In this document: piece by piece, positions 6,110 to 6,211 of the stretch
How positions within the stretch are numbered: position 1 is the stretch's first letter
Layout: every line of letters starts with the position of its first letter
Source of the DNA: Erysipelotrichaceae bacterium
GTDB lineage: Bacteria > Bacillota_I > Bacilli_A > Erysipelotrichales > Erysipelotrichaceae
Length of the DNA stretch: 32,000 bases
Reading direction: 5' to 3'
NCBI GenBank assembly: GCA_963676105.1
Contig: OY781039.1
Span: forward strand, 1,830,001 to 1,862,000
Translations under genes and position numbers: made by a program
The notes under the pieces: generated by a model
What the model saw: the letters and a program-made list of their open reading frames with translations, nothing else
The model's database searches: none
What the model was told of the DNA's origin: nothing

Positions 6110-6211
6110 TTAGCACTCCCAAGTATAGCAAAACAATCTTGGTTTTATTTCGACAGTATTGATTCCTAGAATTAAGAAAAGCAAAGCACACGTTATTAAA
6201 TATTTTTTCAT
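6110..6211 (-). CDS. Short hydrophobic peptide, 33 aa: MKKYLITCALLFLILGINTVEIKPRLFCYTWEC (pheromone or second precursor candidate)
   Basis: Internal ATG of the 61-aa track ORF, preceded by AAGGAGGGGG SD; Lys-Lys N-terminus, hydrophobic core, Cys/aromatic tail; sits directly downstream of the regulator on the same strand. Confidence 0.65.
   Translation of the reverse strand: MKKYLITCALLFLILGINTVEIKPRLFCYTWEC

Follow-up and report, generated by a model that had tools for sequence, protein, structure and literature searches.

A 33-residue open reading frame beside a radical SAM peptide cluster in an Erysipelotrichaceae bacterium as the probable propeptide of an RRNPP-type signalling pair

A block of five minus-strand genes within a 32,000-nucleotide (nt) stretch of an Erysipelotrichaceae bacterium genome (GenBank assembly GCA_963676105.1, contig OY781039.1, positions 1,830,001 to 1,862,000; the whole stretch is referred to as the window) encodes a regulator, a 33-amino-acid (aa) open reading frame (ORF), a 26-aa ORF, a radical S-adenosylmethionine (rSAM)/SPASM enzyme, and an ABC exporter. 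This arrangement raises the question of what the 33-aa ORF might encode: a signal for the regulator, a substrate of the rSAM enzyme, an effector with a role of its own, or nothing at all. A first-pass annotation of the DNA had described the ORF as SHP/ComS-like and proposed that its product is either the cognate pheromone of the adjacent regulator or a second substrate of the maturase. Our analysis favors the former, as we consider the product of the ORF likely to be the propeptide in a quorum-sensing pair of the RRNPP type; the ~412-aa helix-turn-helix (HTH)-tetratricopeptide repeat (TPR) protein encoded immediately upstream would be its receptor. The elements of this putative pair are the following.

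6110 to 6211, minus strand: 33-aa ORF MKKYLITCALLFLILGINTVEIKPRLFCYTWEC, from an ATG at 6211 to a TAA; candidate propeptide gene
6214 to 6223, minus strand: Shine-Dalgarno (SD) sequence AAGGAGGGGG of the 33-aa ORF, ending 2 nt from the ATG, with its AGGAGG core 5 nt from the ATG
6321 to 7559, minus strand: putative receptor-regulator with an XRE-type HTH and a C-terminal TPR superhelix; 412 aa from an SD-preceded ATG at 7559, or 416 aa from 7571 in public calls

Judged by its sequence, the 33-aa ORF is a real gene, as the first-pass annotation had supposed, because it combines a strong SD, a constant length among its homologs, and a synonymous-biased divergence. The earlier description of MKKYLITCALLFLILGINTVEIKPRLFCYTWEC, with a basic N-terminus, a hydrophobic core, and a short C-terminal tail, was correct, and to it can be added a semi-conserved h-N-[TV] junction and a C-x2-W-x-C motif at the C-terminal end. 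Its position had been described correctly as well: the ORF lies directly 3’ of the regulator on the same strand, in the order of comR and comS, and starts 109 nt past the regulator stop. Over the 23 codons that align with the gene in a relative whose regulator is 76% identical (locus L007), there are four synonymous and four conservative non-synonymous differences, with pS (the synonymous proportion) at 0.245 vs. a pN (non-synonymous) of 0.076. When 1.09 Mb of DNA was searched in six frames with the strict pattern M-[KR]-[KR]...C-x2-[WFY]-x-C, followed by 0-1 residue and a stop, the matches were confined to loci of the regulator family. The first-pass annotation had also allowed that a longer frame of 61 aa might be the conserved product. 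That frame, which starts with a TTG, is not conserved; the longest ORF leading to the same stop in locus L098 is 33 aa, which is the common denominator at the other loci. The 33-aa peptide has no Pfam or NCBIfam match, and both it and the 26-aa peptide MLVTNEGITSYPTPRAWVNFFCGGFC, which is encoded 60 nt past the end of the 33-aa ORF, are missing from a collection of 15 billion proteins, so neither is called as a gene in public data. A lipoprotein reading of the N-terminus was considered and rejected. By the lipobox rule, the Cys of the L-I-T-C motif at residues 5-8 is too near the N-terminus and the Thr at -1 is not typical; furthermore, the homologs do not conserve the motif.

The regulator family comprises 13 representatives. 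Small ORFs 3’ of the regulator were read in the window and at L098, L099/L100, L096, and L093/L094, while seven other family representatives were left out. A same-strand small ORF with an SD was found in all four of the other family loci with readable downstream DNA. A scan of metagenomes with the regulator yielded one further usable locus. The pairs are listed below with the identity of each regulator to that of the window and the distance from the regulator stop to the start of the peptide ORF.

Window, regulator taken as the reference: MKKYLITCALLFLILGINTVEIKPRLFCYTWEC, 33 aa, 109 nt
L098, regulator 38% identical: MKKIFLSLLLLLTLCSTPVNTYSVQVQCYTWNC, tail CYTWNC, 33 aa, 106 nt
L099/L100, regulator 32% identical: MKKVIIISILIFSNLIVLNVDNYKQATCILWEC, tail CILWEC, 33 aa, 140 nt
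L096, regulator 25% identical: MRKLLTLIMILNILFVINVHPKPAIECLHFVCT, tail CLHFVCT, 33 aa, 103 nt
L093/L094, regulator 17% identical over the whole alignment and 23-28% over matching segments: MKKIVVSAICGLCLFGAFACAAQPANATDNTVAISRYACFVR, tail YACFVR, 42 aa, 338 nt

All of these peptides have a basic start, a variable hydrophobic segment, and the semi-conserved h-N-[T/V] junction, and the four 33-mers (window, L098, L099, and L096) all carry the terminal C-x2-[W/F]-x-C. The three loci other than the window are of metagenomic or genomic origin and are unrelated. The 42-aa peptide of L093 has a canonical A-x-A signal peptide. A G-rich SD precedes each of the homologous small ORFs; at L099, the sole SD-like site is a GAGGGG ~11-12 nt before the 33-aa ATG. 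Thus, the adjacent co-conserved small ORF expected of an RRNPP system is present in five of five readable intact loci, at 103-140 nt in four of them and at 338 nt in L093. The similarity of the peptide tails drops as the regulators diverge, which fits a co-evolving pair. The proposal that the 33-aa peptide is the cognate signalling propeptide of the adjacent regulator is upheld here, in that the peptide is co-conserved with an HTH+TPR RRNPP-like regulator in a constant position and strand. The first-pass annotation had suggested a comparison of paired conservation across homologous loci and had named absence of the peptide from such loci as a point against it; instead, the small ORF is present in 4/4 of the other readable regulator loci, and the peptide tracks the regulator family rather than the rSAM loci.

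What follows the peptide gene is different in every family locus.

L098, downstream of the pair: a zinc-ribbon membrane protein and a nitroreductase
L099, downstream of the pair: two small unknown proteins
L096, downstream of the pair: a secreted 125-aa protein, an FtsX-like permease, and an ABC ATPase

Since the cargo varies by locus and the rSAM gene occurs only in the window, the pair looks like a portable signal-receptor cassette. At L099, a 15-aa ORF MKFISKTIISMMLIM with an AGGAG SD (5493-5540) starts 8 nt past the stop of the 33-aa gene; it may be a second short hydrophobic peptide or a chance frame.

The regulator of the window by itself has no Pfam or NCBIfam match. A word-indexed protein search with it returned one relative (76% identical), and a profile search from that pair returned three proteins. 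An exhaustive search of 1.8 billion representatives gave the family of 13 proteins (E <= 0.001), of which 11 are 413-428 aa long. One of them, KAF0225092.1, is annotated only as hypothetical and comes from an Erysipelotrichaceae metagenome-assembled genome, and another representative stands for a cluster of 14 members. No homologs were found in plasmid, phage, or IMG/VR collections. The aligned family has in common an I-C-S-Q-S-T-L-S-R-I-E-N-G helix near the N-terminus. Pfam identifies TPR_2 in five of 12 members and, weakly, HTH_31 in six of 12, and matches to TPR_1/2/8 occur in members. The family profile matches consensus TPR proteins (8bu0 at 1e-30) and repeat proteins down to 2e-52, at profile positions 277-309. 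A profile of the first ~75 residues has as its best solved relatives the PlcR HTH (E 0.01), PezA, and Rgg2/3, with weak E-values. An AlphaFold run from a 2-sequence alignment was unusable, with a predicted local distance difference test score (pLDDT) of 43; the model reported here was obtained from a 12-sequence alignment and is all-helical, with a pLDDT of 88.8 and a predicted TM-score (pTM) of 0.87. When this model was compared with the PDB using Foldseek, 11 of the 12 top matches were Rap-family proteins, most with a bound pheromone, or PlcR-PapR, with AimR lower down. These include 4i9c (RapF-PhrF), 8rst/8rsu/8rtc (phi3T Rap with its pheromone), 6t46 (pLS20 Rap), and PlcR-PapR with DNA; TM values are 0.5-0.58 against the peptide-bound Raps, and the E-values are modest, from 4e-3.

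From these comparisons, the regulator is predicted to have the architecture and fold of an RRNPP receptor, including both a TPR-type helical-repeat domain and an N-terminal HTH, the latter found in the family even though the window protein itself has no Pfam HTH match. At the sequence level, the regulator is outside the RNPP_C (Rgg/ComR/PlcR) family. RNPP_C (PF18768) is matched by neither the window regulator nor any of 12 family members, and an hhalign comparison of the family with ten Rgg-like RNPP_C regulators from rSAM loci aligned the N-terminal 105 columns (probability 96.9%, E 1.3e-10) and found no match past them.

The remaining genes of the block are presumed cargo. The 26-aa precursor is likely to be regulated by the signalling pair rather than to be a member of it.

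5969 to 6049, minus strand: 26-aa precursor MLVTNEGITSYPTPRAWVNFFCGGFC of a putative ribosomally synthesized, post-translationally modified peptide (RiPP), with a C-terminal C-G-x-x-C core (C-G-G-F-C)
4674 to 5921, minus strand: rSAM/SPASM peptide maturase, 415 aa, with Radical_SAM and Fer4_12 matches and sub-threshold matches to several rSAM/SPASM RiPP maturase models
3073 to 4677, minus strand: ABC exporter, a fused permease and ATPase without a peptidase domain, whose start overlaps the rSAM stop

The rSAM enzyme has conserved cluster cysteines and shares only 37% identity with its nearest relatives; the exporter matches the streptosactin exporter GggC below threshold. With a profile built from the rSAM family, the enzyme is detected in the window and in none of L093-L100 or L007/L008. 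Around the L098, L099, and L096 pairs, the rSAM-free DNA extends at least 3.7 kb 3’ of the peptide and 1.1-4 kb 5’ of the regulator. Conversely, a genome scan with the rSAM profile found 80 loci, none of which carries the regulator family of the window and none of which is from the source genome, and the 33-aa peptide was found in none of the more than 20 rSAM-homologous loci inspected. Because the peptide occurs in regulator loci without the rSAM enzyme and never in rSAM loci without the regulator, it seems to travel with the regulator, not with the maturase. Ahead of each of the closest rSAM relatives lies a peptide gene from another family; its product has 24-28 aa, a leader like M-K-V-V-x-x-G, and a terminal C-G-x-x-C.

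L001, precursor tail: ...NNVCGGGC
L005, precursor tail: ...NLLCGLHC
L009, precursor tail: ...NGVCGGLC
L010, precursor tail: ...NIFCGHGC
Streptococcus mitis (L032/L034/L036), precursor tail: ...NNLVCGAGC

The regulators at these closest rSAM loci are others, in some cases RNPP_C or HTH_3 proteins of ~300 aa that have signal-peptide ORFs of their own nearby. A BLASTP comparison of the window regulator with those of L001 and L005 found no real similarity, i.e., they are different regulators.

Three other accounts of the 33-aa ORF have to be weighed against that of a propeptide. One is that the peptide is a second substrate of the maturase, or a pheromone cyclized by it, with F-C-x4-C recognized in the same manner as the F-C-G-G-F-C of the 26-aa precursor. 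The first-pass annotation had raised both of these possibilities and had drawn attention to the aromatic-F-C-x(3-4)-C at the C-terminus of both peptides. That likeness is literally true, and a precursor linked to an rSAM enzyme at L011 (...IICLNVGCK) does have the C-x4-C spacing. In addition, the peptide gene of L007/L008 is broken exactly where the precursor and rSAM genes are deleted, and no shp has been identified for the streptococcal CGx/CGG clusters (PMC13361665). However, the likeness does not extend to a shared family. The 33-aa tail has C-x4-C with a conserved Trp/Phe at +3, while the precursors have C-x3-C with a conserved Gly after the first Cys, and this difference in both spacing and conserved residue places the two tails in separate families. 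The same tail is seen on the homologous peptides of L098, L099, and L096, where the flanks covered contain no rSAM gene; the more than 20 rSAM-homologous loci inspected lack such a peptide; and the 33-aa peptide itself does not have the M-x-V-[VI]-x-x-G/K-type leader of the true precursors. Furthermore, an export-type hydrophobic N-terminus would remove the peptide from a cytoplasmic enzyme. Judging from these patterns, the resemblance of the tail to an rSAM substrate is most likely coincidental, and we regard a second-substrate role, or cyclization by the maturase, as very improbable.

An effector role is also unlikely, though not to the same extent. The peptide would then be a small toxin or bacteriocin that is exported by Sec and looped by a disulfide, or else it would span the membrane once and act in immunity or as an anti-regulator; in either case, it would merely be co-operonic with the regulator. 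Its export-type N-terminus would suit such a role and its two conserved cysteines could close a 6-residue loop, while the small membrane proteins downstream in L098 and L099 could be immunity factors and the L096 cargo (secreted 125-aa protein, FtsX-like permease, and ABC ATPase) is bacteriocin-like in layout. On the other hand, known unmodified bacteriocins do not resemble the predicted released part, which has only ~12-14 residues and little net charge. It is the extreme C-terminus that is conserved, and the hydrophobic segment poorly so; a membrane anchor would show the opposite pattern. Moreover, one partner alone accompanies the peptide at every locus, namely the receptor with its RRNPP-like fold. 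As for a chance frame in AT-rich DNA, or the 61-aa TTG frame as the true product, our own calculation from base composition indicates that a 33-codon frame would be open ~5% of the time at 26% GC, and the peptide is indeed missing from public gene calls. Against this stand the strong SD and ATG, the synonymous bias of the substitutions, and the agreement of four divergent loci in the length, position, and tail of the ORF, while the longer frame cannot form in L098. Both a chance frame and the 61-aa product are effectively refuted, with hardly any probability left to them.

We next turn to how a propeptide gene at this position might be expressed. Three further features of the minus strand are relevant.

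6230 to 6235, minus strand: TATAAT, a -10-like box without a good -35, 5’ of the 33-aa ORF
6283 to 6307, minus strand: AT-rich inverted repeat TAATTAAA-N9-TTTAATTA, just past the regulator stop and partly kept in L007
5937 to 5962, minus strand: stable hairpin with a trailing AUUUUU, located after the precursor gene and before the rSAM gene (-19.4 kcal/mol, z = -6.0, with 0/200 shuffles as stable)

The TATAAT may represent an activator-dependent promoter for a transcript carrying the peptide and the precursor, and -10-like boxes are found at similar distances in L098, L096, and L099 (read by eye). The inverted repeat is tentatively considered an operator. The hairpin is probably a partial terminator that sets the ratio of precursor to enzyme, as a hairpin between precursor and enzymes is the usual layout for over-expression of the precursor relative to the enzymes. 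Neither the gap that separates the regulator from the 33-aa ORF nor the one leading from this ORF to the precursor contains a comparable hairpin. Given the lack of a terminator between them, the 33-aa ORF and the precursor probably share one short transcript, which would give autoinduction.

With the 33-aa ORF as a propeptide gene, the following mechanism can be proposed, each step of which we infer. The peptide would be made with an N-terminal export segment (MKK plus the hydrophobic core) and exported via Sec or an SHP-type Eep/PptAB route. Cleavage near the h-N-[T/V] junction, perhaps with trimming, would release a C-terminal fragment of ~6-13 residues containing C-Y-T-W-E-C, for which CYTWEC, LFCYTWEC, and EIKPRLFCYTWEC are candidates. 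At high cell density, this fragment would be re-imported and bind the TPR groove of the regulator, which would then alter transcription of the unit that starts at the peptide gene and continues without a terminator into the 26-aa precursor and, past the attenuator hairpin, into the genes of the rSAM maturase and the ABC exporter. The outcome would be positive feedback and density-dependent RiPP production. Given the conserved C-x4-C, the released signal might instead be a disulfide-closed hexapeptide ring or a thiol-dependent, redox-gated signal. We view this variant as doubtful. If it is true, an RRNPP-type cytoplasmic receptor would here respond to a cyclic or redox-sensitive pheromone, whereas linear, unmodified peptides are otherwise known for this class. 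A limited literature search found no description of cyclic or disulfide RRNPP pheromones or of Erysipelotrichaceae RRNPP systems. In a remoter version, the likeness to the CGx core may be functional, such that the signal and the RiPP share an exporter or processing step, or the RiPP core mimics the signal; if so, this could bear on the missing shp of the streptococcal CGx/CGG clusters.

The closest relatives of the locus offer a view of its partial loss. L007 and L008, which stem from two independent samples and have the same sequence, are the sole close relatives of the window locus. In both, a regulator 76% identical to that of the window and an ABC exporter with 82% identity are kept, while the precursor and rSAM genes are missing and the exporter ATG sits exactly at the position of the precursor ATG in the window. 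The 33-aa gene is recognizable at 79% nucleotide identity (region L007 1849-2111), although a deletion of 8 nt has removed its SD and ATG and another, of 4 nt near the 3’ end, shifts the frame. The pS and pN values of its aligned part indicate that this decay is recent. Between the window and L007, dN/dS (the ratio of non-synonymous to synonymous substitution rates) is 0.19 for the regulator and 0.18 for the exporter. These observations are compatible with a signalling gene that becomes dispensable once the cargo is lost, and a non-producer that keeps the receptor and a possibly protective exporter may have an immune non-producer or eavesdropper genotype.

Several observations weigh against a propeptide and should be set beside those in its favor. 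Only five independent regulator-peptide pairs were read from a 13-representative family. The junction residues (Val or Thr at -1) are poor signal peptidase I sites, and a linear RRNPP signal would not usually carry two invariant cysteines. No full sigma-70 consensus is present on the minus strand 5’ of the 33-aa ORF, where the scan did no better than shuffles in such AT-rich DNA. Likewise, no exact inverted repeat (5-6-nt half-sites, spacer 0-14) is common to the family loci, in a test of low power in which shuffles yielded none either. Lastly, the L007/L008 regulator is intact and under purifying selection overall even though the 33-aa gene is broken, and it follows that the regulator can persist without its own peptide.

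How the pair compares with known systems depends upon which component is considered. Approximately 600 streptococcal rSAM RiPP clusters adjoin shp/rgg (PMC9389541), and the window resembles the streptococcal Rgg/SHP rSAM RiPPs, or RaS-RiPPs (streptide str, tryglysin wgk, and CGx/CGG), in its set of a sensing regulator, a hydrophobic propeptide, a precursor, an rSAM/SPASM enzyme, and an ABC exporter (PMC9389541, PMC13361665). The CGx/CGG RaS-RiPP subfamilies are uncharacterized and have no identified shp (PMC13361665). The precursor of the window ends in C-G-G-F-C, and the S. mitis homolog of the rSAM enzyme (29% identical) follows a V-C-G-A-G-C precursor together with a divergent Rgg-like gene. 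The 26-aa precursor is probably of the streptococcal CGx/CGG RaS-RiPP type, and the CGx/CGG layout of a short C-G-x precursor, an rSAM/SPASM enzyme, and an ABC exporter is shared by the window, L001, L005, L009, L010, and the S. mitis loci L032/L034/L036. Unlike the streptococcal CGx/CGG clusters, however, the window has an evident propeptide gene, and its host is not a Streptococcus; base composition and one member of the regulator family indicate Erysipelotrichaceae-like bacteria.

The SHP/ComS-like label of the first-pass annotation is not supported. The receptor is neither Rgg nor ComR, no NCBIfam or Pfam model (including those of ComS and ComR) matches the peptide or the regulator of the window, and the SHP and XIP sequences in the table of PMC13361665 do not resemble the tail. 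Compared with Rgg, the receptor is ~415 aa vs. ~285 aa, lacks RNPP_C, and is homologous only over the N-terminal ~105 residues; compared with SHP, the peptide is 33 aa with a C-x2-W-x-C tail and is encoded on the same strand 3’ of the regulator. The ComR/ComS system shares the regulator-then-peptide order on one strand and a C-terminal tail rich in aromatics and Trp, but ComR is an RNPP_C-type protein of ~300 aa, XIP has no conserved Cys pair, and there are no competence genes in the window.

Closer parallels in organization are found in NprR/NprX and PlcR/PapR of the Bacillus cereus group, in which an HTH+TPR receptor gene is likewise followed on the same strand by the gene for a small exported propeptide. 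NprR is ~420 aa, close to the size of the window receptor, and the active part of PapR is C-terminal, as proposed here. PlcR-PapR is also among the Foldseek matches, and the PlcR HTH is the best match of the N-terminal profile. Nevertheless, the window regulator has no significant full-length sequence similarity to NprR or PlcR, and the regulated genes differ. PapR and NprX are 43-48 aa and have canonical Sec signal peptides and no cysteine pair. The best structural matches are to Rap/Phr (including the phi3T and pLS20 Raps), where a small propeptide gene also lies immediately downstream on the same strand. Unlike the window protein with its XRE-type HTH, Rap has no DNA-binding HTH and acts on partner proteins. 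What is new here is a ~415-aa receptor family with NprR-like size and gene order and an orphan sequence, a peptide family with an invariant Cys pair, and the host group.

Additional observations were made in the surroundings of the locus and of its relatives. The block from 3073 to 7571 has a GC content of 25.8% vs. 33.4% in the rest of the window, a difference suggestive of an acquired accessory island within a region that is core in other respects (cdaA-ybbR-glmM, murein genes, and ddl). A ~190-nt unit is present in three plus-strand copies (2622-2810, 7668-7840, and 9407-9590) that are 74-88% identical. Each copy includes a tandem GGGTCAC-N4-5-GGGTCAC, a TATAAT, ~100 conserved nt, and an intrinsic terminator GACCCAATTTGGGTCTTTTT, and the unit has no Rfam match. 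Copies 1 and 2 flank the low-GC quorum-sensing/RiPP block, and copies 2 and 3 flank an AAA_14/DUF4143 ATPase gene. Its structure suggests either a small-RNA gene in three copies or a module of promoter, leader, and terminator. A 402-aa TraB/PrgY/GumN-family protein is encoded on the minus strand at 14909-16117, 8.7 kb from the signalling pair; PrgY and TraB of enterococcal plasmids limit self-induction by endogenous pheromone.

Among the rSAM-homologous loci, L032/L034/L036 (S. mitis and Streptococcus spp.; e.g., L034 5730-5816) have a cassette of precursor MVIQEIVEHDMEQDYGIEFNNLVCGAGC, rSAM enzyme, ABC protein, and divergent Rgg-like gene, which is probably the published uncharacterized CGx RaS-RiPP subfamily. 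Small ORFs at L010 (7852-8007, MKKKFLATLCILSVLMSLCLSSAFAHEHPEDCECEECMITPLWGGGGGDDA) and L012 (474-668, MKKRIASFVTLLLCLSLLTAFPVAHAEEIDPDF...) have classical signal peptides and are convergent to ~300-aa RNPP_C/HTH_3 regulators; these are likely further unannotated RRNPP propeptides. At L004/L006 (1475-3841), Lactococcin-972-type bacteriocin genes (Pfam Lactococcin_972 and DUF1430) adjoin the closest rSAM homolog, and a like layout of secreted protein, permease, and ABC ATPase lies 3’ of the regulator-peptide pair at L096 (5278-8353), where the secreted protein has no Pfam match. Such cassettes appear to be shuffled among antimicrobial cargo genes.

The wiring of a peptide signal to a RaS-RiPP is an established streptococcal paradigm, and nothing in it is overturned by this locus. 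Rather, the RRNPP repertoire would gain an unannotated receptor family, with no Pfam or NCBIfam model and ~13 representative clusters, along with its propeptide, in hosts that are low-GC and probably Erysipelotrichaceae-like bacteria. The conserved Cys pair bears on the chemistry of the signal and could raise the finding beyond a known kind. The natural variant that has the receptor and exporter without the signal, precursor, and maturase is a small lead on producer/non-producer dynamics. For the window itself, the 33-aa peptide is a putative inducer of an otherwise silent CGx-type rSAM RiPP operon, and a synthetic C-terminal peptide could switch the cluster on.

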